Position numbers and translations under genes: made by a program. From Candidatus Omnitrophota bacterium (GTDB taxonomy: Bacteria > Omnitrophota > Gorgyraeia > Zapsychrales > JAKLDJ01), in the NCBI GenBank assembly GCA_022703585.1, contig JAKLDJ010000004.1, forward strand, positions 71,594-135,593: 64,000 nt of DNA. The letters run 5' to 3'. The notes below the pieces were generated by a model that worked only from the letters and a program-made list of their open reading frames with translations, was not told where the DNA came from and did not search any database. Shown piece after piece: positions 32,711 to 55,669 of this stretch (position 1 is its first letter; each line of letters begins with the position of its first letter).

Positions 32711-32756
32711 TTTTATTGGCGGGGTAGCTCAGCCCGATAGAGCACTCGGCTCATAC
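32711..32756 (+). repeat. attL-like direct repeat (7 nt upstream plus first 39 nt of the tRNA(CAT) gene)
   Basis: ttttattggcggggtagctcagcccgatagagcactcggctcatac is identical to 46325-46370. The copy diverges immediately after the anticodon loop. Confidence 0.85.
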
Positions 32757-32864: not shown

Positions 32865-33773
32865 ATGAAATTAAACGATGCGTATGATGAATTTATCAAC
32901 TCAGCACTTTTGGAAAGATGTTTAGAGCAAACAACTATTGATTGGTATTCTCGTTGCATTCAGCCAGTATTTAAATACTTCCGCTACAACCTCATTCCGC
33001 TAGAAGTTGATTCTCTAACAGTCGAAAATCTAAGAAAATATTTTATTAGTTACAAACAAAAAGGAAACACTTCAAGGACTGTGCTTAATGCAATGCAGGG
33101 CACTAGGTCTTTTTGTAGTTTTCTACTCAAGAGGGGGTATTTGCAAAAAAATCCTTTCCTTGAACTTGAAAAACCAAAGCTACCTAAAACACTTCCTGAA
33201 TTCTTAGATGAAGAAGAGGCAAAAAAATTACTACAAGCATGTATTAATCTCAAAAGAACCTACAAATCTAGGTGGAGCAGAGACATTGCTATTATCGCTT
33301 TGTTTCTCTTTGCTGGTTTGCGCAAGAAAGAACTTTTAAACTTAAAACTAAACGATTTCAATCAAGAAAAAGGATATATCAAAGTTTCTGCAAAGAATAA
33401 AGAGAGATTAGTTCCATTATGCGATACAGCTAAATCATTTCTACTGGATTATCTGAAAATAAGACCCAAAAGAGTGCTGGTCGATAATATTTTTGTGTCT
33501 ACTAACAGAAAATCATCTGCACTAACGCAACAGGGGTTATACGATTTATTCCTGGATTTACGTAAGCTAGTACAGTTTAGGATAAAGAAAAAGCTTAGCC
33601 CCCAAATTCTGAGGCATACTTTTTGCACCTTAATGCTCCGAAATGGCGTAAATTTGCGGGATATTCAGCTTTTAGCAGGGCATTCGGATATATCTACTAC
33701 GGCAAGATTTTATTTGGGGTGTGATGAAAAACAGCTAAAAAGTGCGGTAGATAGACATCCGTTGAATATTTGA
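32865..33773 (+). CDS. int: Tyrosine-type site-specific recombinase/integrase
   Basis: C-terminal catalytic region LRHTFCTLMLRNGVNLRDIQLLAGHSDISTTARFY (R...HxxR...Y). N-terminal SAM-like core-binding domain. Confidence 0.9.
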   Translation: MKLNDAYDEFINSALLERCLEQTTIDWYSRCIQPVFKYFRYNLIPLEVDSLTVENLRKYFISYKQKGNTSRTVLNAMQGTRSFCSFLLKRGYLQKNPFLELEKPKLPKTLPEFLDEEEAKKLLQACINLKRTYKSRWSRDIAIIALFLFAGLRKKELLNLKLNDFNQEKGYIKVSAKNKERLVPLCDTAKSFLLDYLKIRPKRVLVDNIFVSTNRKSSALTQQGLYDLFLDLRKLVQFRIKKKLSPQILRHTFCTLMLRNGVNLRDIQLLAGHSDISTTARFYLGCDEKQLKSAVDRHPLNI

Positions 33774-33797: not shown

Positions 33798-36700
33798 ATG
33801 CGCATGTCCGCATTAGTCGAAGAAAGAATAAAGAGATGGAAAAACAAATTAATAGACCTATCTAAACGTAATCGACTCCTCAATTTTAAGCCCACCAAAA
33901 CAACCACTATTCAGATTGTAGACGAAATTCCATCAGAAGCTTATCGTACTATTGTTCTAAATGAAAGTGTCATGTCTTTTCTTCCAGCAGATGGCGATAT
34001 CGAAGGCGACAAAGACAATACGGGTTCTTCCAGTCAGCTTGAAATAAAAGAATTTCAAGATTACGCTCAAGAAGAATTAGACACAAAACACACTGATTTA
34101 TACCTTCAAACAAACTTGGGTGAAAGCCATCTCGACAAGAATTTATTTCGCATTACTTCAATCGCTACATCGGTTATGGAAGAACAAGGTTATAACTCTT
34201 TGTTTTTGGCATTAGGTTTTTTGGAGTGGTATGAATCAAAAGATTCGGATGTTAAGTTTAGGTCTCCTATCCTTTTAATTCCTGTGCAATTAAACAGAAA
34301 ATCAGTCAAAAGTGATTATACTTTGAGTTTTGGTGAAGATGCGCCTATTTTGAATCCTGCATTAATATATATGCTTTCGCTTGATTTTGGCATTGATTTA
34401 GAGGACATAAGCGAAGAATTAGAACAAATTGAACCCAGAGAAATATTCAGAAAAATACAGGAAGCGATTCAGGAATTTGAACGTTGGAAAGTAACTAATG
34501 ATATCTTTTTAAGTTTGTTTTCATTTACGAAATTTATTATGTTTAAAGATTTAGAAAAGAATATGGGCACGCTCATTGATAATAAAGTTATCCAAATTAT
34601 TTGTGGTGTGGGGAGAGAAGAAAATATAGCCTTGGACGACATTTGCCCATTAGGAGAAATTGAGAAAAATACGAAACCGGAGAAAACTTTTCAAATTCTT
34701 GATGCAGACTCAAGCCAACAAAGAGCAATTCTCGTAGTCAAAAAAGGACATAACCTTATTATCGAAGGCCCCCCAGGAACAGGAAAGTCGCAAACAATAG
34801 CCAACATGATTGCGGAAAGTCTAACAGAAGGGAAGAAAGTATTATTTGTGAGTGAGAAAATGGCAGCTCTTGAGGTTGTAAAGAATCGGCTTGAATTAGC
34901 CGGTATTGGAGATTATTGCTTAGAACTGCATAGCCGTAAGACTAATAAAAAAAGGGTAGCTGAGGAACTTGGAAGGGTGATGGAACAACGAAAAAAGCCC
35001 GACCATAGCCATAATGATGAATTAGCTAAATTAGAGAGATTGCGTTCAGAATTAAATCGCTACGTATCAGATTTGCATAAAATATTTGGCGGGCTTCAGA
35101 TGACCCCGTACCAAGCAATTGGGATAGTTAATGCACATCCAGATATGCCAGACTTAGAATACATGTTTAATAACACCAAAGAGTGGTCAAAAGATAAATT
35201 TGATATAATCTGTGAACTTTTTGAGAAATTAAGTCGAAATATATTGAATATCGGACAACCACGATTGCATCCTTGGTTCGGTACAAGTCTTATCGAATTA
35301 GTTTATTCTGACAAAACAAATCTAAGAAACCATTTCAATAACATAAGTAGAATAGTTTCTGAGCTAAAAATTAGTATTGATGCATTGAGTGAAATCAGTT
35401 CATTTGGTGATGTAAAAACTATTTCCGATATTCAAGAATTGTTAGATGCATCTGAAATTTTGAAACTTTCGCCTAACGTAGCAAGTGATTTGCTAAAAGA
35501 TAAACGTTGGAATGATATCAGTGCAGATGTGAGACAAGCTATTAGTGCAGTACAAACATTTAATACTTTTGAGAAGAAATATTCAAGCCAGTATAAAATG
35601 ACGGTGTTGAATGAAAACATTGAGGAGATTCTCCAAAGATATAAAACTTATACGAGTAACATGTTTTTTGTATTTAAATTTAGTTTCTGGAAAGATAGTA
35701 AAGTTCTCAAGAGTCATTTTACAGGTAAGAGAAAAATTAACCTAAAGGAACTAATCAAGGAATTAGACGAATTATTTCTTTGGAAAAAGTCTGCACAGCA
35801 AATAGACGATTTTAGTAAAAATGGAAATGAGCTTTTTGGTGAACGATGGAGAGGGCGTAAGTCCAGTGGCGAAGAACTCCAAAAGTTCTCAGAATGGATT
35901 GTCAAATTTAGATATCATGTAATTAAGAATCATTTTAAAGATAAGGTTTTTGAAAGCAGCAAAGATAAATCTTCTCTTGAAGATTTACAAACGAAAGTAA
36001 AAAACAACTTGGATGAATTTAATGGTGTTTTAAGCTCAATCAATAGCATCGTAAAATTCGATTATAAATTAGCTTTTAGTACTAAGCTCTGCGAACATAA
36101 TGACCTTGATATGATAAGAGGGAAATTAAATAAGATGAGCGAGTCGATGGAAGAAGTAGACCCTTGGCTAAGCTTTCAGAGAGTATACCAAGAATGTGAG
36201 AAGGAGGGGTTAACTGAATTTATTGATGTGCTTTTAGCCAAAGATATTAAACCAGAAGCATACGTGACGGCTTTTAAATGTCAATTCTTACGATGTTGGT
36301 TGGATGAGGTTTTCTCTGAGAGAGATAGATTAAGAAATTTTCAAGGTAAAAACCATGAACAATTGATTGAGCAATTCAAACAATTAGATTGCAAACAAAT
36401 TGAATTGGCAAAGGTTCGAATCCAACATCTTCTTTCTGGAAATTATGATTCAAGTTGGAAAGGAGCTCAGAGTTCTGAGAGAGGAATACTGGAGCGTGAA
36501 GTTAGAAAAAAAAGAGCACATAAGCCTCTTAGAAAGTTATTTAAAGAAATACCTCACTTGTTATTATCACTAAAACCCTGTTTAATGATGAGTCCTTTAA
36601 CTGTCGCACAGTTTTTGGAGCCAGACTTATTCGATTTTGACTTGGTTATTTTTGATGAAGCTAGCCAAGTGCCTCCTCAGGACAGTATTGGAGCAATTAT

Positions 36701-38498
36701 GCGTGGTAAGCAAATAGTTATTGCAGGTGACGCTAAGCAGTTGCCACCAACTTCATTTTTTCAATCAACGGTATTGGATACTGAAGATGATGATGAATTT
36801 GATGAGTATATCCCAGAAGATTTAGATAGCATTCTAGATGAATGTGCGTCAGTTGGCTTGCCTCGGACTTTATTAGAATGGCATTACAGAAGCAAACACG
36901 AGTCTTTAATCGCATATTCGAACAAATATTATTATGAAAATAGATTAAATACTTTTCCTAATTCAATAGATGTGAGTGATACGCTTGGAATTAAATTCAA
37001 TTATTTTCCAGAGTCACAGTACCGTAAGGGCGGTGTAAATATTCTTGAAGCACAAGAAGTTGCTAAAAGAGTGTTTCAACATTTTAAGGAGAATCCTGAT
37101 ATAAGTTTAGGTGTGGGGACGTTCAGTATCAAACAAAAATATGCCATAGAGGATGCTGTTGAAGAATTAAGAAAGAACGATACAAGCTTAGAAGACTTGT
37201 TTTCTCCGGATAGGCCAGAGCATTTCTTTGTTAAGAATCTAGAATCAATACAGGGAGATGAGCGAGACGTAATCTTTATTAGTATTGGATATGGTAAGGA
37301 TGATTCTGGAAAATTGCCAATGAGATTTGGACCTATTAATCAACTGGGTGGAGAGCGAAGGCTTAATGTTCTTATTACGCGAGCAAGAAGACGATTAGAA
37401 ATCTTCAGCTCAATACGAGGCTCCGACTTTGACTTGACTAAAACAGAAAGTGAGGGAGTGCACCTTCTCAAGAAATATCTCGATTATGCTGAGCTGGGAA
37501 GAAGCGTACTGCTTCAGGATATCGAATATTCGAATTCATCTAGTTATTCTGACTCTCCATTCGAGGAGGCAGTATATGAATCTTTAGTCAGGGCAGGATT
37601 TAAGGTTCATCAACAAGTTGGGTGTTCAGAATATAGAATTGATATGGCTATCGTCGATGTTGAATTACCGGGCAAGTATGTACTTGGCATTGAATGTGAT
37701 GGAGCAAATTATCATTCAAGTATTACAGCAAGAGATAGGGATAGACTGAGACAGCAGGTCTTAGAGGGCCTGGGATGGAATATTTATCGAATTTGGTCTA
37801 CCGATTGGTTTAAAAATAAGAAGAAGGAAACAGAAAGATTGATTGAGGCAATTAGAGAAAGCCAGAAGGGAAATAGTAAAAAAAAACTAAATAAATATAC
37901 TAGTTTTGAAATAAAACTCAATTCCGCCTCCACAGAGACATTATCGAATAAAGATAGGAAATTGGTAGATTATCAATTAACTCCCGTGGATTCCATCAGA
38001 ACATCAGATTTTTATTATCAATCAGATGAAGTTCTAGCTCAAATTTTAATTAAAATAGTCAAGTGTGAGGGGCCGATTTTTTATGAAGAAGCATGGAGGA
38101 GATTAATCCAACACTGGGGGATGCGGTCTGTAGGCAGTAGGATTCGACTCAAATTAAAAGGCTTAGAGCAATACTGCTTAAATAATAAGAAATTTGAGAA
38201 ACGAAAAGATTTTTATTGGCTTAATAAGCATCAAGAATTGAAGATTAGGAACAGAGACGTTAACGATGTTTATAAAAAGATTGAGTATGTTGCCCCAGAG
38301 GAAGTCCAAGAAGCAGTGAAATATGTTTTAAATATGGAGTACTCAATACCACTAGTTTCTTTAATATCTCAAACAGCTAAATCATTAGGCTTCCATAGGA
38401 TTGGTGATGACGTTTATTCATATATTAAGAAAGCGATTGATTTGCTTATAAAAAATGAAGATTTGTATGAAGACAACGGCAATATAAGGATTAAGTAA
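33798..38498 (+). CDS. Giant helicase-nuclease: DUF4011-like N-terminus, Upf1-like SF1 helicase (AAA_11/AAA_12), Vsr/DUF559-like PD-(D/E)xK nuclease and DUF3320-like tail
   Basis: 1566 aa. SF1 motifs: Walker A EGPPGTGKSQT, Walker B VIFDEASQV, motif III IAGDAKQLPPT, motif V IQGDERDVIFIS, motif VI NVLITRARRRLEIF. C-terminal endonuclease-like block: FEEAVYESLVRAGFKV...EYRIDMAIVD...LGIECDGANYH. Confidence 0.8.
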   Translation: MRMSALVEERIKRWKNKLIDLSKRNRLLNFKPTKTTTIQIVDEIPSEAYRTIVLNESVMSFLPADGDIEGDKDNTGSSSQLEIKEFQDYAQEELDTKHTDLYLQTNLGESHLDKNLFRITSIATSVMEEQGYNSLFLALGFLEWYESKDSDVKFRSPILLIPVQLNRKSVKSDYTLSFGEDAPILNPALIYMLSLDFGIDLEDISEELEQIEPREIFRKIQEAIQEFERWKVTNDIFLSLFSFTKFIMFKDLEKNMGTLIDNKVIQIICGVGREENIALDDICPLGEIEKNTKPEKTFQILDADSSQQRAILVVKKGHNLIIEGPPGTGKSQTIANMIAESLTEGKKVLFVSEKMAALEVVKNRLELAGIGDYCLELHSRKTNKKRVAEELGRVMEQRKKPDHSHNDELAKLERLRSELNRYVSDLHKIFGGLQMTPYQAIGIVNAHPDMPDLEYMFNNTKEWSKDKFDIICELFEKLSRNILNIGQPRLHPWFGTSLIELVYSDKTNLRNHFNNISRIVSELKISIDALSEISSFGDVKTISDIQELLDASEILKLSPNVASDLLKDKRWNDISADVRQAISAVQTFNTFEKKYSSQYKMTVLNENIEEILQRYKTYTSNMFFVFKFSFWKDSKVLKSHFTGKRKINLKELIKELDELFLWKKSAQQIDDFSKNGNELFGERWRGRKSSGEELQKFSEWIVKFRYHVIKNHFKDKVFESSKDKSSLEDLQTKVKNNLDEFNGVLSSINSIVKFDYKLAFSTKLCEHNDLDMIRGKLNKMSESMEEVDPWLSFQRVYQECEKEGLTEFIDVLLAKDIKPEAYVTAFKCQFLRCWLDEVFSERDRLRNFQGKNHEQLIEQFKQLDCKQIELAKVRIQHLLSGNYDSSWKGAQSSERGILEREVRKKRAHKPLRKLFKEIPHLLLSLKPCLMMSPLTVAQFLEPDLFDFDLVIFDEASQVPPQDSIGAIMRGKQIVIAGDAKQLPPTSFFQSTVLDTEDDDEFDEYIPEDLDSILDECASVGLPRTLLEWHYRSKHESLIAYSNKYYYENRLNTFPNSIDVSDTLGIKFNYFPESQYRKGGVNILEAQEVAKRVFQHFKENPDISLGVGTFSIKQKYAIEDAVEELRKNDTSLEDLFSPDRPEHFFVKNLESIQGDERDVIFISIGYGKDDSGKLPMRFGPINQLGGERRLNVLITRARRRLEIFSSIRGSDFDLTKTESEGVHLLKKYLDYAELGRSVLLQDIEYSNSSSYSDSPFEEAVYESLVRAGFKVHQQVGCSEYRIDMAIVDVELPGKYVLGIECDGANYHSSITARDRDRLRQQVLEGLGWNIYRIWSTDWFKNKKKETERLIEAIRESQKGNSKKKLNKYTSFEIKLNSASTETLSNKDRKLVDYQLTPVDSIRTSDFYYQSDEVLAQILIKIVKCEGPIFYEEAWRRLIQHWGMRSVGSRIRLKLKGLEQYCLNNKKFEKRKDFYWLNKHQELKIRNRDVNDVYKKIEYVAPEEVQEAVKYVLNMEYSIPLVSLISQTAKSLGFHRIGDDVYSYIKKAIDLLIKNEDLYEDNGNIRIK

Positions 38499-38524: not shown

Positions 38525-38734
38525 ATGAATGACCTATTTGATGAATTCTTAGAATATGATTTTACTATGGGGGTTGATGTTGTGAAGTGCCCGCATTGCG
38601 GTGGTGACGTGCAATGCAGCCTTTTCATTGATAGCGAAGTTGAATGTTCAGGGTGTGGAAAAAAATTTCATAAGGATGAATTAAGAGCAAATCGTAAGAA
38701 TCCTAAAGACACAATACCTAAACAGCCGAATTAG
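38525..38734 (+). CDS. Small zinc-ribbon protein
   Basis: 69 aa with CPHCGG...CSGCGKKFH (two CxxC pairs). 26 bp downstream of the helicase-nuclease gene. Confidence 0.5.
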   Translation: MNDLFDEFLEYDFTMGVDVVKCPHCGGDVQCSLFIDSEVECSGCGKKFHKDELRANRKNPKDTIPKQPN

Positions 38735-38777
38735 GTCGAGAAAAGGTTCTGTCTTTATATTATAGGGCATAGAAACT

Positions 38778-41309
38778 ATGTTTAATTTCTTCAAATTTCA
38801 AAATTATCGCTCTTACTGGAAAATAAGAAATTTGGTTTTATTATCTAAATTTTGGATACATAGGTTGTTTTTTCAAGGTAATTTAAAAATAAAAGACGCT
38901 CAGGAAGAGTTGTCAATAGTTACTCACCTAACATGGCTTGCTTCAAAAACCATTCTTTTTTCTATTCTTATCGTAGTATCTTGTGAATCATTCGAAAAAG
39001 CAATATTAAAATTTCTCCCTACTAATACAACAATCCTTCTAGCGGGAATGCACGACTTAGTTATAAGAAACTCCAGTTCTTTGGAGAATTTTATCATGAC
39101 GATTGCTTCGATACTAGGCGTGTTCTTGGGTCTTTACTTTACTGCAATTAGTATCGTAGCTAGCTCGGTATTTACAGCTGTGCCGAGCAATGTTAGAGAG
39201 TTGTACTTAAAAGAGAAAATTGGGAATACCTATATACGGATATTGGCTATCCTTTTAGCAATTTCGATTATAATCTTTGGCTGTCGGATATTTGGCTATT
39301 ACCCAAGCACGCTGCTAACCGTTTTAATGCTGATTTTTAGCTGTGTCAGCATATTCGCATTTGTAATGTTGGGGGTTAGAGCCTTTTCCTTCTTCGACCC
39401 CACTGTGTTAGTAGATATAATTTTTGCGGATTTATATGCAGATATAAGATTGGCGAGTGTAAGTGGCCTAAGGTGGCTCGATTCTAACTTTCAGTCTCAT
39501 TACCATAAGCTTGCATCAAAAAACGTAAACACCCTTGCTAATTTGGTCGAAATATGTCTAAAAAATCCTCATTTATACAAGAAATCTGTCCCGTTGCTAT
39601 CATGGCGTCTATGCTATTTTTTAAAAGATTATCAAATGCAAAAAGCCCGAATACCTACTGATAGTTACTGGTTTTCACGTATACCAAAATATAAAGACAC
39701 CTTCATCGTAGACGACACAACTTTAACAGTAGCATTACAAACTCAAACTTCTATTCAACCGGAATCTATAACTGATAATTATTGGCTGGAAGATGAAATT
39801 TTTGAAATCCTTACGAATATGCTTAGCATTATGTTAAATAATCACAATATTATAATCTCTGCCGATATTTTAGATGGTATTAATAAATATTTTGAAGATT
39901 TGGGAGAGAAACTGGAGGGTAAGAAATGCTGCGATATGTTTAAGAAAATAGAAGCAGTAATGGAACCTTATTTTCTAAGTCTTTCTGAAGAAAAATGTAA
40001 AGGAATAGCGGATGTAAATTTTGCTCTGTTTGATAGATATAACATGCTTCTGTTGTCTTGCGCGATGGGATTCAATAAATTTATTCGTGAATTCAAAACA
40101 TCTTCCTTTATGCAAAACATAGATTCCATTTTGTGGGAGGATAGGGGTGCTATTTATCGAAACTCTATGGTGCCGATGCTATTGGAAAGGCTAGAATTCC
40201 TCCAAAAACGCCTCGAATTTGAACAGAAAGTAGAAGGGGAGTTTGTTAGCCCTACTTGGTACAGAAGACAGTTACTTAGTAATAAAATTGGCTTAATAGT
40301 GAACGAAGTTTTTGAATCAATGATGAGTTCATTGCAAAATTTTTATGTTAATAGTTCCAGCGCACTTTTAAACAAAAAAGCAGTTATCTTAACAACATAT
40401 AGGGCAAAAAGAGGTCTCGAAGTATTCTGGAAAATGCAAACCCATATTCTGCATCTCAAGAAACTGATTGAAAATCTCGAAAAATTTAACATAGAAAAAG
40501 AATTGTTTTGGCCAAAGTGGGATTGGGATGTTATTGAGAAGAAAATCGATAAAAATAATGATGCCCTCATACAACAAGAAGCTAAATGCCTTCCGGCACT
40601 ATCTATCATAAATAAAACAGAGAATGAGCCAGACCTCTTCGGCGAAACATATCATAAAATCTGTGAAGAATGTTTTGCATCTTTGGCAAATAATAAAGAT
40701 GAAAAATTCTCCACAATATTTCATTCCTTATTTATAGGTGCTCTTCAAGCGCATGACCGCCTTAGAATTTCGTATAAAGACCGTGACGCCAGAACTCAAA
40801 TATTAATTTCATTTCAGCCATTAGCAGACCTTATAGAAGTAAGTGGCTATGCCAAAATATATTCTGAGTTGTTCTCTTCTCCAAAACTATGGGAAACGTG
40901 CCAGGAATGTTGGAATAATTATTTAAATAATAAAGAAAAGAAAGATGAAACAATAGAATACATCATTACGAGTTACCAATATAAAAAGGCACAATTCGGT
41001 TTATTTGCACGAGATATTTGGAAAACAAATTGGCAAATTAAACTTAATAGAAAATTGCAAGAAATGAATTTAATCGACAGTATGTTTAGAGAAGACGATT
41101 ATCCGAGAAAGCCAAAAGAGAGACTTGCGGATAAAAGTCCTTTTATCCGAACTCTGTGCAGAGGGAGATATGAACCATTTATTCGTGCTTCAGAAATTTT
41201 TCTCCTCATTTATTTTGTAAAACAACTTGGAGTTAAGAACTTTTCCGATAATCATAATTTTATTCGGCATTTGGAAGAGGAAGAAGCTAAGACCAATGTT
41301 ACGAAATAA
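38778..41309 (+). CDS. Large multi-pass membrane protein (≈6 N-terminal TM helices + ~600-aa cytoplasmic helical region), function unknown
   Basis: 843-aa ORF with hydrophobic helices between residues ~45-230 and a Lys/Glu-rich alpha-helical remainder. No recognisable catalytic motif. Confidence 0.6.
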   Translation: MFNFFKFQNYRSYWKIRNLVLLSKFWIHRLFFQGNLKIKDAQEELSIVTHLTWLASKTILFSILIVVSCESFEKAILKFLPTNTTILLAGMHDLVIRNSSSLENFIMTIASILGVFLGLYFTAISIVASSVFTAVPSNVRELYLKEKIGNTYIRILAILLAISIIIFGCRIFGYYPSTLLTVLMLIFSCVSIFAFVMLGVRAFSFFDPTVLVDIIFADLYADIRLASVSGLRWLDSNFQSHYHKLASKNVNTLANLVEICLKNPHLYKKSVPLLSWRLCYFLKDYQMQKARIPTDSYWFSRIPKYKDTFIVDDTTLTVALQTQTSIQPESITDNYWLEDEIFEILTNMLSIMLNNHNIIISADILDGINKYFEDLGEKLEGKKCCDMFKKIEAVMEPYFLSLSEEKCKGIADVNFALFDRYNMLLLSCAMGFNKFIREFKTSSFMQNIDSILWEDRGAIYRNSMVPMLLERLEFLQKRLEFEQKVEGEFVSPTWYRRQLLSNKIGLIVNEVFESMMSSLQNFYVNSSSALLNKKAVILTTYRAKRGLEVFWKMQTHILHLKKLIENLEKFNIEKELFWPKWDWDVIEKKIDKNNDALIQQEAKCLPALSIINKTENEPDLFGETYHKICEECFASLANNKDEKFSTIFHSLFIGALQAHDRLRISYKDRDARTQILISFQPLADLIEVSGYAKIYSELFSSPKLWETCQECWNNYLNNKEKKDETIEYIITSYQYKKAQFGLFARDIWKTNWQIKLNRKLQEMNLIDSMFREDDYPRKPKERLADKSPFIRTLCRGRYEPFIRASEIFLLIYFVKQLGVKNFSDNHNFIRHLEEEEAKTNVTK

Positions 41310-42279
41310 AAAAATACACCAAGACGAAAAAAGTTCGATGAAATCCATTTATTACACTCCTTTGGAGCATCGAAGGGATGTGTACAGCTCTTTTTATAAT
41401 CACATGCTAACCGAAGATATTCATTTGGGCATAATGCCCTTTGGCGGAAGAACCAAAAATGAGTTGTTTAAAGTAGCAGTTAAACCACAGGATGCGGAAA
41501 TCGAGAATTTAATAAAAGATAGTTTACTTACGCATCACGGCGAACCGTATGATTTAAAAGAAGCGATTTGCGACTTTATTGACGAAGCTGCTGCATTACT
41601 AGGATACGATGGCGTAGCTTATTACGAAATTGTATATTATACGACTTCCAAAAAGCCGACACGATTTGAGTTGCACCGTATTATCAACAGAAATATAAAA
41701 GATACGTTTGGATTATACTGGCAGTATATCCCGAGTGCTGCACGAAAATATATAGAAACGGATAAGAAATTCATCTGGCTACCTAAGAGGAGAATTATTA
41801 AAATAAAATTTCCCAGTATAATTGGTGGTTTAAATTCTCAACGAACATTAATCCACAACCTAACATGGCTGAGCGAATGTAGCGTAACACCGAAATTTGC
41901 AATGGAAGACATGAAAAAACAAAAGCAAACAAACGATTATGATTTCGTAGTTTACCAGAGAAACAAGAACATATTTTTAGCTAGAATAACGCAACGTTTA
42001 GGATGGTCTGCTCGAGGCGAATTGAATGATTATACATTAGATATTTATCAGTTATACCGATACCTAAAATTTGAGAAAACCAAAGCAATTATCCGAGAAA
42101 CTGTTTTAGGCAATCTTAATAAAGCACTAGCTACTATCGGTAAAGAAATTGGTTTTAATGCAACAATCGAAATAAGCGGTATTCCTTCAGCATCAGATTT
42201 TGATAATTACATAGATAAGCTTCTTTCGGGAGAAATGCCATTTGCCAAGGTTGTCGAGATTATGAAATATGATTGGTAA
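41296..42279 (+). CDS. Hypothetical protein, translationally coupled to the upstream membrane protein
   Basis: ATG at 41296 overlaps the preceding stop by 14 nt. 327 aa with no recognised domain. Confidence 0.5.
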   Translation: MLRNKKIHQDEKSSMKSIYYTPLEHRRDVYSSFYNHMLTEDIHLGIMPFGGRTKNELFKVAVKPQDAEIENLIKDSLLTHHGEPYDLKEAICDFIDEAAALLGYDGVAYYEIVYYTTSKKPTRFELHRIINRNIKDTFGLYWQYIPSAARKYIETDKKFIWLPKRRIIKIKFPSIIGGLNSQRTLIHNLTWLSECSVTPKFAMEDMKKQKQTNDYDFVVYQRNKNIFLARITQRLGWSARGELNDYTLDIYQLYRYLKFEKTKAIIRETVLGNLNKALATIGKEIGFNATIEISGIPSASDFDNYIDKLLSGEMPFAKVVEIMKYDW

Positions 42280-42618
42280 TAGCACTATTTGTTTCCAGAG
42301 AAAAACGCGAGATTGCCGATTAAGGCAGAAAATAGCTACCGATTAGTTAGAGGTCTATGATAAAATACCGATAAATTAACCTGATGTGGAAATGGCAGCA
42401 TAAAAATTTCAGAGAGGGAGGTTTACAGAGTAAAATATTTTAAATATTTAGGAACATAGCTTTTCCTAATTAATAAACCAACTTGTGAGAGGAAGAGACT
42501 GTGTCCTGGGCACTTCGGTGCTTGGGGCAAGCGGTCTTTCGCTTTTACTCACAAGTTGGGCGTTAGACTTAAAAATGCTTGCCCTTTTTTATTTGGGTAA
42601 GCCTAAAAGGAGGGGACA

Positions 42619-43131
42619 ATGATAGCATCGCTAGTAACTTTAATAATTGTTATTGGGTCATCGATTTGGATAGCTATTGATGCACATCGAAACAAGATTT
42701 CCACTGACAATAAGCCGTACCGGATAAATAGCGGTGCTGTGACTTGGTTTTTTGCTTGTCTCTTATTCTGGATTTTTGTACTCCCTGCCTATCTCTTCAA
42801 GAGATTCAAACATCTAAAAGCCCAAGGAAAAAACTCTATCCTAGCAACTGTAGTGGGGATTATTCTGTTAGCAGTTCCAATCATGATGTTTACTGGCATC
42901 ATGAAGATGCCCACCTTAGACCTCCAAGAACAGGTTAAGCAAAGCATAATAGAGACGTGGTCAAGAGAGCCAACGATGGCAAATACTCAAATTCAGTCCT
43001 TTACGTTAATTCACAAAAGCAACAACCAGTATGAGGGTTTACTTGAAGTCACGATGAATGGGGTGGCTACAAGATTTCTCATAGATGTCACGTACGATGG
43101 TAGGAAATTTATGTGGCAAATTAGGCAATAA
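42619..43131 (+). CDS. Small membrane protein (2-3 TM helices + C-terminal soluble domain)
   Basis: 170 aa with GGAGGGG RBS and hydrophobic segments at residues ~5-25, 40-60 and 70-95. Confidence 0.5.
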   Translation: MIASLVTLIIVIGSSIWIAIDAHRNKISTDNKPYRINSGAVTWFFACLLFWIFVLPAYLFKRFKHLKAQGKNSILATVVGIILLAVPIMMFTGIMKMPTLDLQEQVKQSIIETWSREPTMANTQIQSFTLIHKSNNQYEGLLEVTMNGVATRFLIDVTYDGRKFMWQIRQ

Positions 43132-43627
43132 TCTCTGGCATAGCTTTTTAAACATTTTGTAGTCTAAGAACTTATCAAAACTGCTTCGAAAAGCATATTA
43201 TATTATTCAAAAGTTTCCTATAAAGCATCAAGCCCCACCAATCTTTCCCCGAAAATACATCGAAGAAAACCACTTTGTAAATCTAATTAAATATCATAAA
43301 TCATTTATTTGCAACAGGTTACTGTTAGTCACTACAGATTTTTATACAAAAAATAGGCGTATTCAGAGAAAGATAGGGTAGGTAGAGCTAAATTTCAGAC
43401 CGGGGTTGAGCGAAGAGCGACCCACCGGGTATTGGTCAACCATCAAAGAGTAGTCACGTAGACTACTAGTCGATGGCTATCAGTGCTGCCTAGCAAATCA
43501 CATGTTGCTCAAGAATTCGTTGAACCTAGCCTATGCCGGAGCGCAAATAAGCAGCTCCAAATTTAATCTGCCAACTATTTCTAAATGTTTTTCTCGTCGA
43601 GAAATCAAGTTTTTCAAAAAAAAGTAC

Positions 43628-43656
43628 TTGACAAAATTATTTTTGTGTTCTATAAT
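43628..43656 (+). promoter_or_regulatory. Consensus sigma70 promoter (TTGACA-N17-TATAAT) inside the island
   Basis: ttgacaaaattatttttgtgttctataat has perfect hexamers with 17-nt spacing. It reads into the iteron-like repeats and the small ORF / repO-like gene. Confidence 0.6.
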
Positions 43657-43689: not shown

Positions 43690-43817
43690 GTGGATTTTTT
43701 GCGGACGAAAAGTGGATTTTTCATGGAAATAGAGTGGATTTTTCGTAATATATCTGAAAGGAGGTGATAATATTTAAAGAATAAAAAAATAAAAGAAAAC
43801 GGATAAATCGTGGATTT
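43690..43817 (+). repeat. Iteron-like direct repeats GTGGATTTTT (x3 at ~21-23-bp spacing, plus a fourth degenerate copy)
   Basis: gtggattttt occurs at 43690, 43710 and 43733, with cgtggattta at 43808. Two-helical-turn spacing, located immediately upstream of a lambda-O-like initiator gene. Confidence 0.55.
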
Positions 43818-43937
43818 AGCGATTTATAGTAGCCCTTACTCTGTCTGGTGTAGATTAGGGGCATTTTTTTAACATAACCTTCTGATTCTTAGCTGAATCG
43901 GGGGGTTTTTTATTAAAGAATAAAGAAGGAGGGCTCT

Positions 43938-44221: not shown

Positions 44222-45139
44222 ATGGACAATTTTAAAAACCTTTGGCAACCCTACGATGATAAGAAATCACTTTTGTGGACAAAAATTCCAAATTGCTTAT
44301 TGCTTTTTCTTATGCAAGGTAAGCAAAGGTTCACAGAAATTAGAATTATTTTATTAATTTGTCGTATGGGCTTCGGATTCAAAAGAGAGGAGACTAATTA
44401 TCTTGATTTGAAAGACTTTGAAAAAGCCACAGGATTAAATAAAAGCCAAGCTTCTAAGGCAATAAATTCACTCTTAAGCGCATATGTGATATTCCGCTAC
44501 TCGAAGAATGGTAACAAGTATAAGTATGCAGTTAATCTTTTGAAGCATGGCATAGAAATGAAGCATTTCCGAATTGGTAAAATGGATAGCCAAAAAGATA
44601 ATGGGATTTATCAGATTGGAAATATAGATTACCAATTAGACAATTATAACGGCTCGAAGAATGAGCTAATTCTATATAGTTCCAAGGGTTACAAGAATGT
44701 AAAAAACCCCTATATAAAAGAGGATAGAAAAGATGATATAAAAATAGATATAGCAAAAAGGCATGCCAGTAGTCCTGTTTCTAGCAGTCCTACTAGCAAT
44801 ACTTTAACTGGCAACGCTAGCCAAACTACCAAGAGTAAAAAATACAATAACACCATGGAATTAGCTCAGGATTTTGATAAAGAACTATATAAAGCAAATA
44901 TAGAAAAGGATGGTGAAAAATTGCTAATTAGATTCATAGAATTAGAGCATTCACAATTTCCCGACCAAAGGCAACCTTGGCTCATACCAAGTATTTATTG
45001 TGACTATACAGCCAGAAAAATAGCTGGATTAACTGAGGAGATGTATACCAAAGAGCTTAATAAAATTCTGGAAAATGCCAATAAGTTACGAAACGAATTA
45101 AACTCTAGATGTAGCGAATTACTAAAGAATAAAAAATAG
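44222..45139 (+). CDS. Replication initiator / replisome organiser, phage lambda O-like N-terminal winged-helix
   Basis: N-terminal segment TEIRIILLICRMGFGFKREETNYLDLKDFEKATGLNKSQASKAINSLLSAYVI follows the lambda O / phage_rep_org_N pattern (xxLLxIxRxTxGxxK...TGL...AIxxL). Adjacent to iteron-like repeats. Confidence 0.55.
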   Translation: MDNFKNLWQPYDDKKSLLWTKIPNCLLLFLMQGKQRFTEIRIILLICRMGFGFKREETNYLDLKDFEKATGLNKSQASKAINSLLSAYVIFRYSKNGNKYKYAVNLLKHGIEMKHFRIGKMDSQKDNGIYQIGNIDYQLDNYNGSKNELILYSSKGYKNVKNPYIKEDRKDDIKIDIAKRHASSPVSSSPTSNTLTGNASQTTKSKKYNNTMELAQDFDKELYKANIEKDGEKLLIRFIELEHSQFPDQRQPWLIPSIYCDYTARKIAGLTEEMYTKELNKILENANKLRNELNSRCSELLKNKK

Positions 45140-45219
45140 AATAATACATCTATCGCGTTTTTGCGAAGGAACATTTCCATTGACATTTGCTGAAGCATTT
45201 GTTATGGTATACCAAAACT

Positions 45220-45393
45220 ATGAAATACTATACCATAAGTCAACTTGCTAAAGAGCTTAAAGTGCATAAAAATACCATTTTCTATTGGGAGAAAACGGGT
45301 AAAATACCTAAACCCAAGAGAGAATCTGTAAGCGGTTATCGTGTTTGGACAGAGAAAGATGTAAAAAAGATAAGAGAGTCAAATTCGAGGTGA
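45220..45393 (+). CDS. MerR/excisionase-like HTH protein (candidate Xis or regulator)
   Basis: 57 aa. YTISQLAKELKVHKNTIFYWEKTGKIPKPKRESVSGYRVWTEKDVKKI follows the MerR-type/Xis pattern. Sits near attR. Confidence 0.5.
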   Translation: MKYYTISQLAKELKVHKNTIFYWEKTGKIPKPKRESVSGYRVWTEKDVKKIRESNSR

Positions 45394-46215: not shown

Positions 46216-46324
46216 TTTAATAACAGAAAGGAGAAAGCATACTAGACAAATAATTCTTAGTCAATGGTTGTAAAAAATATTGAATTTTTGTCAATTTTAG
46301 CTTAGAATCCTTCAATTATATTAA

Positions 46325-46370
46325 TTTTATTGGCGGGGTAGCTCAGCCCGATAGAGCACTCGGCTCATAC
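46325..46370 (+). repeat. attR-like direct repeat (7 nt upstream plus first 39 nt of the intact tRNA)
   Basis: Identical 46-mer to 32711-32756. Confidence 0.85.
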
Positions 46371-46405
46371 CCGATTGGTCGAGAGTTTAAATCTCTCCCC
46401 CGCCA
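46332..46405 (+). tRNA. tRNA with CAT anticodon (elongator Met or Ile2/lysidine type)
   Basis: Hand-folded cloverleaf: acceptor GGCGGGG/CCCCGCC, D-arm GCTC-loop-GAGC, anticodon loop CTCATAC (CAT), T-arm GAGAG-TTTAAAT-CTCTC, discriminator A, no encoded CCA. G1-C72 rules out the initiator. tilS lies 1.2 kb downstream. Confidence 0.8.
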
Positions 46406-46488
46406 CTTTCTCTCACAAACCCCACCCGAAAATTCCGTAGATTACTTTGCCCCGTATCAGTATAATAAGGAAGCAAAGGAGGGGACCC

Positions 46489-54685: not shown

Positions 54686-55192
54686 ATGTTAGCAATTTTA
54701 TTACTGACCTTCGGATTCGCAACACGCCTTTTTATCCACACACCTAATTTTACTCCGGTTATCGCGCTCGCGCTTTTTGGCGGCGTCTATTTAAACAAAA
54801 AATACGCCCTGATTTTGCCTTTAGGTCTCATGGCGATTTCTGATATGGCGATCGGTATGCACAATGTCGTCTTTTTTACCTGGGGAAGCATTGTGGCCAT
54901 CGCACTTTTAGGGATGTGGCTTAAGAGCCGCAACAACTGGGTCAATATTGCCAGCACCAATCTTGTCGGGGCTGTCTTGTTTTTCATTGTTACCAATTTC
55001 GGTGTCTGGGCTATGGGTTGGTATCCGCTGACCCTCGCCGGCTTAGCCGATTGTTTCTGGCTGGCGATACCGTTTTTTAGAACCACACTGCTCAGCACTA
55101 TTGTTTACAGTGTCATTTTGTTCGGTTTATACGAACTTGTTGCTTACCGGGTTAAAGACACACGTCTAGCCCGTGTTCTTTTGACAAACTAA
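54686..55192 (+). CDS. Small polytopic membrane protein (5-6 TM), ECF-transporter S-component-like
   Basis: 168 aa, almost entirely hydrophobic helices, with a structured leader upstream. The family is uncertain. Confidence 0.45.
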   Translation: MLAILLLTFGFATRLFIHTPNFTPVIALALFGGVYLNKKYALILPLGLMAISDMAIGMHNVVFFTWGSIVAIALLGMWLKSRNNWVNIASTNLVGAVLFFIVTNFGVWAMGWYPLTLAGLADCFWLAIPFFRTTLLSTIVYSVILFGLYELVAYRVKDTRLARVLLTN

Positions 55193-55204
55193 AAGTAATC
55201 TAAT

Positions 55205-55415
55205 AGGTTCCTGCAACTCGGCCCCCAGAAATTCTTACCGGGCCAAAGGAATAAAAGGGAAGTCCGTTTGATTCGGACGCGGTCCCGCCGCTGTGATCCG
55301 GCCTTTTTCTTAAAAAGAAAAAGGACCCTTTTGACAGTCATCAGCCACTACTTTAATCAAGTGGGAAGGCAGTCAAAAGAGAAGGAAAGCCAGAAGACCT
55401 GCCTGTTAGTTATGT
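55205..55415 (+). promoter_or_regulatory. Cobalamin (adenosylcobalamin) riboswitch
   Basis: aataaaagggaagtccgtttgattcggacgcggtcccgccgctgtga, gccactac...gtgggaaggcagtc (B12-box) and gccagaagacctgcc match conserved blocks of the E. coli btuB leader and the RF00174 consensus. Followed by expression-platform hairpins and a TonB-dependent receptor gene. Confidence 0.8.
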
Positions 55416-55669
55416 TGCTGATATCGCGCGAGACGATATTCAAACGCATAGATTGGGACTAAGAAATCAGGGTGCACTCCCAACTGCCTCTAAAAGGGCG
55501 GTTGGGAGTTTTGTTTTTAGGCCCGGCGAAGCTCAAGCGCAGAAGCGTTTGAGCTTCGCCGAGGCAACACCGCCGTTTGTTTCGTTCGCCAAGATTTGTG
55601 GCGGACGAAACAGGCGGTGTAGACCACCCCGGTTTTTCTAAAAAAGAATTTCAATAATGGAGAACAAAA

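Follow-up and report, generated by a model that had tools for sequence, protein, structure and literature searches.

Hhe is a single-gene system in which a helicase and a nuclease are combined, and it belongs to the experimentally built panel of Gao et al. (PMC11482910). Single-gene protection against phage is shown only for hhe of E. coli, several class II DNA-metabolism genes of T7 behave as triggers, phage counters are described as well, a gene of Bas63 is toxic only in hhe cells, and the PhageMaP authors suggest that the mechanism may involve depletion of NAD+ or adenine (PMC11482910); Payne (2021) makes no mention of Hhe. A module that joins a Vsr-type restriction endonuclease and two winged helix-turn-helix domains, overlapping DUF3320, to an SF1 helicase was described in 2013 (Anantharaman et al.; PMC3710099). 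Profile collections hold further families of this kind. The PDC set, from which the PADLOC model PDC-S37 derives, comprises 145 phage defence candidates defined by their embedding in BREX, DISARM, or type I restriction-modification (R-M) loci, and NCBIfam carries a model named ‘anti-phage protein ProA’ (NF058533); PDC-S37 receives no mention in the searchable literature, and neither a publication behind the name ProA nor direct experimental evidence on the subfamily was found there. In HamAB (Hachiman), the nuclease is licensed by a helicase that monitors the integrity of the DNA (PMC12278908).

The window analysed here, 64,000 nucleotides of Candidatus Omnitrophota DNA, contains a real and intact helicase-nuclease gene, which is carried by a mobile element of 13.6 kb (Table 1). 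Its open reading frame has an ATG start, no internal stops, and a product of 1566 aa; the NCBI gene call begins at Met3 and yields 1564 aa. The NCBI product name is only ‘DUF3320 domain-containing protein’, because the protein is a short form of about 1570 aa that falls just below the ProA cut-off.

Table 1. Features of the Omnitrophota island and of the helicase-nuclease that it carries (positions in the window).
Feature	Position	Strand	Evidence or remark
attL, 46-nt perfect direct repeat	32711..32756	+	7 nt upstream plus tRNA-Met nt 1-39; truncated 5' copy
Tyrosine recombinase/integrase, 302 aa, XerC/D-like	32865..33773	+	Pfam Phage_integrase 3.3e-28; PHROG integrase 8.5e-47
Helicase-nuclease, PDC-S37 type by profile; Hhe paralog and short ProA form	33798..38498	+	HMMs, homolog alignment
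N-terminal region, aa 1-296, including DUF4011 (aa 17-193)	33798..34685	+	Mixed alpha/beta fold
Helicase domain 1A, first part, aa 297-400	34686..34997	+	Walker A and motif Ia-like stretch
Poorly conserved ~530-aa insertion, aa 401-930, in the Walker A-Walker B gap	34998..36587	+	Low conservation in homolog alignment
Remaining helicase core, aa 931-1215	36588..37442	+	AAA_11/AAA_12 and Upf1-like profile matches, invariant columns
Vsr-fold endonuclease (MTES_1575/DUF559), aa ~1252-1357	37551..37868	+	Invariant D1282, E1299, D1301, Y1305
C-terminal tail, aa ~1389-1566, two winged-helix domains including DUF3320 (aa 1404-1450)	37962..38495	+	
Replication initiator-like gene (phage O/DnaD-like N-domain)	44222..45139	+	Pfam Phage_rep_O 6.3e-7; PHROG O-like replication initiation
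MerR/HTH_17 small DNA-binding protein, excisionase-like/regulator	45187..45393	+	Pfam, PHROG
attR, second copy of the 46-nt repeat	46325..46370	+	5' part of intact tRNA
Intact tRNA-Met (CAT), integration target	46332..46406	+	ARAGORN; Rfam tRNA 62.4 bits

From the N-terminus onward, the protein consists of DUF4011, an SF1B helicase that is split by an insertion, an MTES_1575 nuclease, and two winged-helix domains that include DUF3320. Pfam matches were obtained for DUF4011 (E=1.8e-41), for AAA_11, AAA_19, and AAA_12 (the last at residues 1016–1204), for MTES_1575 at residues 1255–1352 (E=2.7e-39, accompanied by a weak match to DUF559), and for DUF3320 (E=1.1e-10), and these profile searches support both enzymatic domains. 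Conservation was assessed in an alignment of 23 full-length homologs sharing 38–59% identity, and the helicase and nuclease motif residues proved to be invariant among them.

The preliminary description of this DNA had claimed a complete set of SF1 motifs, and every motif that it quoted was located exactly and is likewise invariant in the 23 homologs. Walker A (GPPGTGKS) occupies residues 324–331 and is followed by a motif Ia-like stretch, FVSEKMAALE, at residues 350–359; on the Walker B side lie DEAS(Q) at 953–957, GDAKQLPP at 977–984, and WHYRS at 1028–1032, and the C-terminal part of the motor contributes QGDERD at 1152–1157 and TRAR at 1194–1197. Walker A and motifs II, III, V, and VI are thus all present with their catalytic residues, as in Upf1-like SF1B helicases, and a profile of the family matches Upf1, Sen1, DNA2, and IGHMBP2 with E values from 6e-16 to 1e-9. 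On this sequence evidence, the motor is assigned to the Upf1/DNA2-like SF1B class with its motifs intact, and membership of that class suggests ATP-dependent translocation and unwinding in the 5'->3' direction. Upf1-like motors frequently act on RNA, and the substrate of this one is for that reason uncertain. The insertion that separates the two parts of the helicase has no family match in a Pfam search; we infer that it occupies the place of accessory domain 1C of Upf1-like helicases.

A Vsr-like alpha/beta fold was confirmed for the nuclease domain, as were the winged-helix folds of the tail. The nuclease motifs EYRIDMAIVD (residues 1278–1287) and ECDG (1299–1302) supply conserved acidic residues, D1282, E1299, and D1301, which together with Y1305 are unchanged in all 23 homologs; putative catalytic roles are assigned to the three acidic residues by analogy. 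The fusion of a C-terminal Vsr/DUF559-type nuclease to the helicase, proposed from the letters alone, is borne out by the MTES_1575 match, these residues, and the fold. The tail beyond the nuclease had been put at about 330 aa; it measures about 210 aa and is made up of a disordered linker and the two winged-helix domains. At the other end of the protein, a fold is predicted with confidence for the DUF4011 domain, and comparison against solved structures returned no structural relative of that fold; nor was a solved structure found for any close relative of the whole protein.

The protein matches the PADLOC model PDC-S37 over essentially its full length (1627.1 bits, E=0, residues 3–1563 against model positions 1–1544 of 1550) and, judged by that match, belongs to the PDC-S37 family. 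The ProA model is matched in one continuous alignment from protein residue 7, through model positions 356–1903, which run from DUF4011 to the DUF3320 tail and cover the ProA core of DUF4011, SF1 helicase, MTES_1575, and DUF3320; the score of 1474 bits lies 26 short of the 1500 cut-off, and other short forms of about 1570–1590 aa likewise reach 1446–1466 bits. The Hhe model of NCBIfam (NF042953) is matched in three separate stretches, of which the best spans 719–1372, for 1008.5 bits against a cut-off of 2000, and the Hhe model of PADLOC (PDLC02194) gives 694 bits with its best stretch at 786–1371. An annotated Hhe from a Klebsiella pneumoniae plasmid (WP_021314612.1, 1911 aa) is 41% identical in the C-terminal part, across 629 aa, and 32% identical in the N-terminal part, across 436 aa, and the single-polypeptide architecture of Hhe (DUF4011, SF1 helicase, and MTES_1575/Vsr nuclease) is present. 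Both NCBIfam equivalog cut-offs are therefore missed by the Omnitrophota protein, which is to be noted against a defence reading. The full-length PDC-S37 match and the ProA match, with Hhe as the tail-less version, do not sustain the earlier suggestion that the architecture was novel.

Membership of Nhi, Hna, or Mokosh, the comparators named in the preliminary description, is rejected. There is no PADLOC match to Nhi or to Hna, nor any that would indicate a sequence relationship with Hachiman. Matches to Mokosh are weak: MkoA (1.5e-23) and MkoC (1.6e-16) align best to the C-terminal part of the helicase, and another MkoA model (1.7e-09) to the region of Walker A.

The element has a GC content of 0.345, against 0.476 and 0.477 in its flanks, and this deviant composition, the tRNA-derived repeats at its ends, and the integrase together characterize it as a tRNA island. 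The integrase scores under the NCBIfam XerC/XerD equivalog cut-offs. It ends 24 nt before the helicase-nuclease, which is the first cargo gene of the island, as had been stated at the outset. Every gene of the island has the same orientation, and putative iterons are present. Three genes follow the helicase-nuclease stop at 38498, starting at 38525, 38778, and 41227 and encoding a 69-aa Zn-ribbon protein, an 843-aa protein with multiple transmembrane (TM) segments, and a 350-aa protein; none has a family match in Pfam, PADLOC, NCBIfam, or PHROG. A scan of the other nine island ORFs gave no PADLOC defence match better than E=0.005, except for a mad1-like MerR-type HTH, and Pfam and PHROG searches of the island returned neither a relaxase or HUH domain nor capsid or packaging genes. 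Of 16 contigs that carry the identical upstream gene, 14 are arranged with the island in place and the other arrangement breaks off at its edge; an island-free site was seen in none. A promoter and terminator scan was uninformative, with 58 promoter-like sites against 51 expected.

The nuclease-plus-winged-helix module is represented by at least 5,650 clusters at 50% identity. The family is distributed patchily over archaea and many bacterial phyla, and homologs occur in 567 plasmid records. Gene neighbourhoods at 84 loci were compared using crude longest-ORF calls, which picked antisense ORFs in some high-GC loci; no neighbour family occurs at more than 7 of the 84, so that there is no synteny and no conserved partner, and the gene is accordingly regarded as a single-gene unit. 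The preliminary description had set its reading against a pattern of uniformly core, syntenic homologs; those observed are neither syntenic nor uniformly core. Among the closest homologs (51–59% identity), two are adjoined by AbiEi/AbiEii, one of these also by TraU/TraF/TraH, and one has an integrase at a distance of 7 kb. Genes found nearest to relatives further include pAgo, PDC-S11, IetA, BrxA (once), and a type I MTase (once). Of the nearest neighbours of 80 relatives, the majority have housekeeping functions, with transketolase, UvrC, PfkB, and permeases as examples. The family context is therefore mixed, with AbiE, pAgo, BREX, or conjugation neighbours in some cases and housekeeping neighbours in many. 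A tyrosine recombinase was detectable within 10 kb at only 3 of the 84 loci, using a home-made profile of limited sensitivity, and integrase adjacency is rejected as a trait of the family. The earlier argument from the position of the gene behind an integrase hence survives in part: a defence or anti-MGE role is still the best reading, but the adjacency characterizes the Omnitrophota copy and not the family. The proposition that the gene is always compositionally foreign is also rejected, since its GC content is more than 0.03 below that of its flanks at only 10 of 59 loci; at 34 of the 59 the two agree within 0.03, and the mean difference is 0.

We consider the protein most likely, with a probability of about 0.6, to be a stand-alone helicase-nuclease of the Hhe/ProA/PDC-S37 group that is carried as island cargo and would serve as an anti-phage or anti-MGE effector. 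The kinship of its motor with DNA2 and Upf1, and a nuclease fold that is that of the Vsr repair nickase, would also suit a genome-maintenance or DNA-repair enzyme of the DNA2 or Vsr type, acting on flaps, mismatches, or stalled forks and riding on the island by chance. Many relatives have native GC content and sit amid housekeeping genes, two of them adjoining UvrC-like genes, and the core genes of Pseudomonas aeruginosa include a large DUF4011 gene, though one that flanks a defence hotspot. A repair function is nonetheless distinctly unlikely, given that the Omnitrophota copy resides on an island of foreign composition with att repeats, that synteny is absent among the 84 loci, that the distribution is patchy, crosses domains, and includes many plasmid copies, that the relatives Hhe and ProA bear anti-phage names, and that AbiE and conjugation genes adjoin close homologs. 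The protein might instead serve the island itself, as a replication or mobilization helicase or, should the element be a phage satellite, as a weapon against its helper phage and not as general immunity; NixI of PLE is an example of such a satellite weapon. Its gene directly follows the integrase on an island whose genes share one strand, other MGEs carry close homologs, and the RepO-like initiator, putative iterons, and excisionase-like HTH come with no recognizable helicase of the island's own. Service to the island is unlikely, however, as homologs occur at no fewer than 80 loci that lack the genes of the Omnitrophota island and mostly lack integrases, and the genes that would mark a satellite are missing; a relaxase or mobilization role in particular is rejected because no relaxase or HUH domain is present. 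This alternative overlaps with the effector reading, since interference with a helper phage would, in its mechanism, count as defence as well.

The three downstream genes might form a multi-gene system in which the helicase-nuclease is a subunit, as suggested by their common strand, their tight spacing, and the orphan character of the products, which belong to no recognized family. The homologs at 51–59% identity keep none of these neighbours, the maximum recurrence of any neighbour family is that given above, and Hhe acts as a single gene; the idea is scarcely credible, and such a system is rejected on the grounds that the neighbours are not conserved. Highly improbable, too, is an RNA-directed effector, in which a Upf1/Sen1-like motor would engage R-loops or transcripts of the phage, with the nuclease nicking the DNA there. 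The closest solved motors (Upf1, Sen1, and IGHMBP2) are indeed RNA or RNA/DNA helicases, but DNA2 matches equally well, the Vsr fold and winged-helix domains are DNA-directed, and no RNA-binding domain was detected by Pfam in the helicase-nuclease.

If the stand-alone effector reading is adopted, a mechanism can be sketched from the families to which the parts belong. The SF1B motor would hydrolyse ATP and translocate 5'->3' along single-stranded nucleic acid, a polarity and substrate taken from its family, and the two winged-helix domains would hold duplex DNA beside the Vsr-fold, Mg-dependent endonuclease. The latter, whose fold and catalytic residues are in place, would presumably nick or cut the duplex so held. 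In uninfected cells the nuclease would have to be restrained, conceivably by the DUF4011 N-domain, the ~530-aa insertion, or both. By extension from Hhe, aberrant DNA arising from phage DNA metabolism or replication might allow the motor to load and thereby license cutting, which would stop phage replication and, if unrestrained, would also harm the host, giving an abortive outcome. A partner gene would not be required.

With this gene, a very large family already recognized by tools for defence annotation gains an intact and compact member from Omnitrophota, a phylum that has been sampled poorly, and the mixed context of that family means that a defence role should not be assumed. A more specific and doubtful proposal is that the short PDC-S37 form could be an autonomous effector whose DUF4011 domain is the sensor that responds to intermediates of phage DNA metabolism and licenses the Vsr-fold nuclease, borne on a small, self-replicating, satellite-like island that also gives the interrupted tRNA gene a new promoter. 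If true, the DUF4011-sensor reading would provide a compact single-chain model for infection sensing by the whole Hhe/ProA group.

Comparison with known systems shows which parts are shared. Upf1, Sen1, IGHMBP2, and DNA2 have the helicase motor motifs in common with the Omnitrophota protein, but their accessory domains are unrelated and they lack an N-terminal DUF4011; DNA2 is also a helicase-nuclease fusion, with a nuclease that differs in type and position from the MTES_1575 domain. Hachiman HamAB can be only a working analogy, as it is a two-protein complex with another helicase and another nuclease. The MTES_1575 protein described previously adds N-terminal transglutaminase and HEPN domains (PMC3710099), neither of which is detectable here by Pfam. 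True ProA relatives, represented by loci L036 (2237 bits) and L076 (2157 bits), have the same domain order but place an extension of about 355 residues before DUF4011, which in L076 shows a weak transglutaminase-like match; the Omnitrophota protein lacks this extension, and its start so close behind the integrase stop leaves no room for one. Hhe, also a single gene, presents DUF4011, a split SF1 helicase, and an MTES_1575 nuclease in the same order, but exceeds the Omnitrophota protein by about 350 aa, its DUF4011 region and its insertion both being larger, and is without the DUF3320/winged-helix tail. PDC-S37 was discovered in BREX, DISARM, and type I R-M contexts, whereas the Omnitrophota copy travels on an integrase/tRNA island, adjoins no known defence gene, and is not embedded in such a locus; embedding was a criterion of discovery and is not required of each member. 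In its length, its domain order, and its organization as a single gene, PDC-S37 equals the Omnitrophota protein, whose architecture is thus already catalogued and which is not a new kind of gene.

In the helicase-nuclease, the SF1B motor and the Vsr-fold nuclease are both intact, and two winged-helix domains are present. The fusion reported in the preliminary description is confirmed, and all motifs quoted there were located at exact residues (see table); the stretch past the nuclease domain, put there at ~330 aa, is ~210 aa long. When 23 full-length homologs (38-59% identity) are aligned, the invariants of the helicase are Walker A, DEASQ, GD..QLPP, WHYRS, QGD.RD, and TRA, and those of the nuclease are D1282, E1299, D1301, and Y1305. 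A 4.7-kb reading frame in DNA of 35% GC, with such scores, is not a chance feature, and the product is 100% identical to the GenBank entry 'DUF3320 domain-containing protein [Candidatus Omnitrophota bacterium]'. The family profile matches the motor domains of IGHMBP2, Sen1, DNA2, and Upf1/NAM7, and the motor is thus Upf1-like SF1B. A poorly conserved insertion of ~530 aa (aa ~401-930), for which no family match was found, parts Walker A from Walker B, and the DUF4011 domain has no relative among solved structures.

Features of the helicase-nuclease (residues, aa) and of the island and host flank (nucleotides of the window)
Feature	Position	Strand	Match or remark
Helicase-nuclease ORF	33798..38498	+	1566 aa; ATG start; internal stops absent
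GPPGTGKS	aa 324-331
DEAS	aa 953-956
GDAKQLPP	aa 977-984
QGDERD	aa 1152-1157
TRAR	aa 1194-1197
EYRIDMAIVD	aa 1278-1287
ECDG	aa 1299-1302
DUF4011	aa 17-193		Pfam E=1.8e-41
AAA_11 / AAA_19	around Walker A, again aa 944-986		Pfam
AAA_12	aa 1016-1204		Pfam
MTES_1575	aa 1255-1352		Pfam E=2.7e-39
DUF559			weak Pfam match
DUF3320	aa 1404-1450		Pfam E=1.1e-10
46-nt repeat, two copies	32711-32756; 46325-46370		perfect, direct
Tyrosine recombinase	32865..33773	+
69-aa CxxC Zn-ribbon ORF	within 38525-43131	+	no family match
843-aa multi-TM protein	within 38525-43131	+	no family match
350-aa protein	within 38525-43131	+	no family match
170-aa TM protein	within 38525-43131	+	no family match
72-aa ORF	island	+
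GC-rich patch	43340-43580
TTGACA-17-TATAAT	43628-43656		perfect promoter consensus
GTGGATTT	43690-43817		4 copies
Terminator-like hairpin	43876-43907
RepO/DnaD-like initiator	44222..45139	+
MerR/HTH_17 excisionase-like protein	island	+
272-aa DNA-binding-like protein	island	+
TTGAAT-17-TAGAAT	46280-46308		promoter-like
Intact tRNA-Met(CAT)	46332-46406
Cobalamin riboswitch	55188-55420	+	86 bits; host flank

As had been proposed, the helicase-nuclease is the first cargo gene of an integrative element, starting 24 nt past the tyrosine recombinase inside the repeat-bounded island. GC content is 0.345 across ~32.76-46.32 kb, against 0.476 and 0.477 in the flanks, and all recognisable island genes lie on the + strand. 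Neither packaging nor conjugation genes turned up on the island, so its appearance is that of a small self-replicating integrative element or a satellite. Searches of Pfam (above cut-off), PADLOC, NCBIfam, and PHROGs gave no match for the four consecutive cargo ORFs that follow the helicase-nuclease.

The repeated sequence takes in 7 nt upstream of tRNA-Met(CAT) and the first 39 nt of the tRNA. It is the 5' half that is duplicated, rather than the usual 3' part, so that the intact tRNA now has island DNA, with a promoter-like sequence, upstream, while the old upstream region retains only the truncated 5' copy. A 5.8-kb contig with identical upstream host genes (L089) stops ~140 nt past a 117-aa gene, at the island edge, which could reflect a break in the assembly at the repeat, or else a population that is mixed at the att site. 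Across the 64-kb window, GTGGATTT occurs only in one group, with three copies at exact 22-nt spacing, in the 800-bp gap that precedes the RepO-like gene; the copies are thus probably iterons or the island origin. The GC-rich patch, in an otherwise AT-rich island, folds as RNA more stably than 200 of 200 shuffles (z = -3.07), has no Rfam match, and could represent either a structured RNA or leftover foreign DNA.

We read the helicase-nuclease as a stand-alone anti-phage or anti-MGE enzyme (probability about 0.6), which supports the earlier interpretation in part. It is without an obligatory partner gene and sits on a mobile carrier. That it serves the island itself, or acts against a helper phage, is unlikely, and this proposal partly overlaps with the defence reading. 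A role in repair or maintenance is likewise unlikely. A uniformly core and syntenic distribution, named in the preliminary description as evidence against a defence role, was not found, there being no synteny across 84 family loci; nor is the family uniformly island-borne, with a detectable tyrosine recombinase within 10 kb at only 3 of the 84 and gene GC within 0.03 of the flanks at 34 of 59. A large DUF4011 gene of P. aeruginosa belongs to the core genome and flanks a defence hotspot (PMC10250203). For 80 more distant relatives, the nearest neighbours number 149; ~8 of them are clear defence genes (pAgo, PDC-S11, AbiEii, BrxA, type I MTase, IetA, and an endonuclease effector), and the remainder are mostly ordinary metabolic, transport, or repair genes. 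Each of the closest homologs (51-59% identity) has a different setting. Two follow the same HTH_17, DUF6577, and AbiEii trio, one (59% identity; L001 7383-14761) within a cobalamin/haem biosynthesis operon and the other (51%; L003 6931-14719) beside TraU/TraF/TraH, in what looks like a small mobile defence cassette; a third has an integrase and RmuC nearby. The most recurrent neighbour family occurs in at most 7 of the 84 loci, so the gene lacks a conserved partner as well as synteny, and the four cargo ORFs are unlinked to it in its relatives; a multi-gene system with these downstream orphans seems most improbable.

The steps by which such a defence enzyme might work are put forward with considerably less confidence. 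From the property of its family, the motor would move 5'->3' on single-stranded nucleic acid; the winged helices may present duplex DNA to the nuclease, to be nicked or cleaved; DUF4011, the long insertion, or both could hold the enzyme off until phage DNA metabolism makes loading substrates; and cutting would stop phage replication, possibly with collateral host damage. An RNA- or R-loop-directed mode is improbable. [quoted passage not shown]

The family is very large, with more than 7,800 90%-identity clusters matching the whole protein (E<=1e-10) and at least 5,650 50%-identity representatives matching the nuclease-plus-winged-helix module alone (E<=1e-30); the best module matches include two length classes, ~1550-1650 and ~1800-2150 aa. 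Relatives are spread over many bacterial phyla, methanogens, and Thermoplasmatales, and are found on 567 plasmid records. Individual loci display an N-terminal Ser/Thr protein kinase add-on (L058 5749-13758), a weak transglutaminase-like segment (L076 5545-11268), a far longer insertion (L084 5060-12424), or, in Methanobrevibacter, a ~1000-aa extra segment ahead of DUF3320 (L035 1499-8764). Variability in the family appears to lie in the N-terminus and the insertion, which are possibly its sensing parts.

The novelty claimed for this protein is not supported. The helicase-nuclease, which comes from an under-sampled phylum, belongs to PDC-S37, represents the short form of ProA, and is paralogous to Hhe, and the statement that it belongs to no characterised defence family is, given these matches, true only narrowly: it holds for the short DUF3320-bearing form, while the architecture is already catalogued as PDC-S37 and Hhe shares its domain order. 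In PADLOC, its match to PDC-S37 runs end to end (1627 bits), and that to Hhe (694 bits) is best in the C-terminal half; the PDCs are 145 untested candidates, taken from among genes that lie inside BREX, DISARM, and type I R-M loci (bioRxiv 10.1101/2024.01.29.577857; also PMC12988326). The score for the NCBIfam model 'anti-phage protein ProA' (NF058533) is 1474 bits where the curated cut-off is 1500, with alignment only to model positions 356-1903; the short form thus misses NCBI's naming threshold by 26 bits, and the NCBIfam Hhe model (NF042953) gives 1008 against 2000. True ProA proteins are N-terminally extended (~1900-2000 aa; for example, 2237 bits at locus L036 and 2157 at L076), the extension having a weak transglutaminase-like match alone, whereas short forms of ~1570-1590 aa, the helicase-nuclease included, score 1446-1474 bits, all from model position 356. 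Hhe is itself described as one gene that combines helicase and nuclease domains, and for which phages encode triggers and counters (PMC11482910). The annotated Hhe of a K. pneumoniae IncFIB plasmid (1911 aa), which adjoins two DUF262 genes and a type I R-M R subunit, shares 41% identity with the helicase-nuclease over the C-terminal 629 aa and 32% over 436 N-terminal aa, and has the same domain order but lacks the DUF3320 tail.
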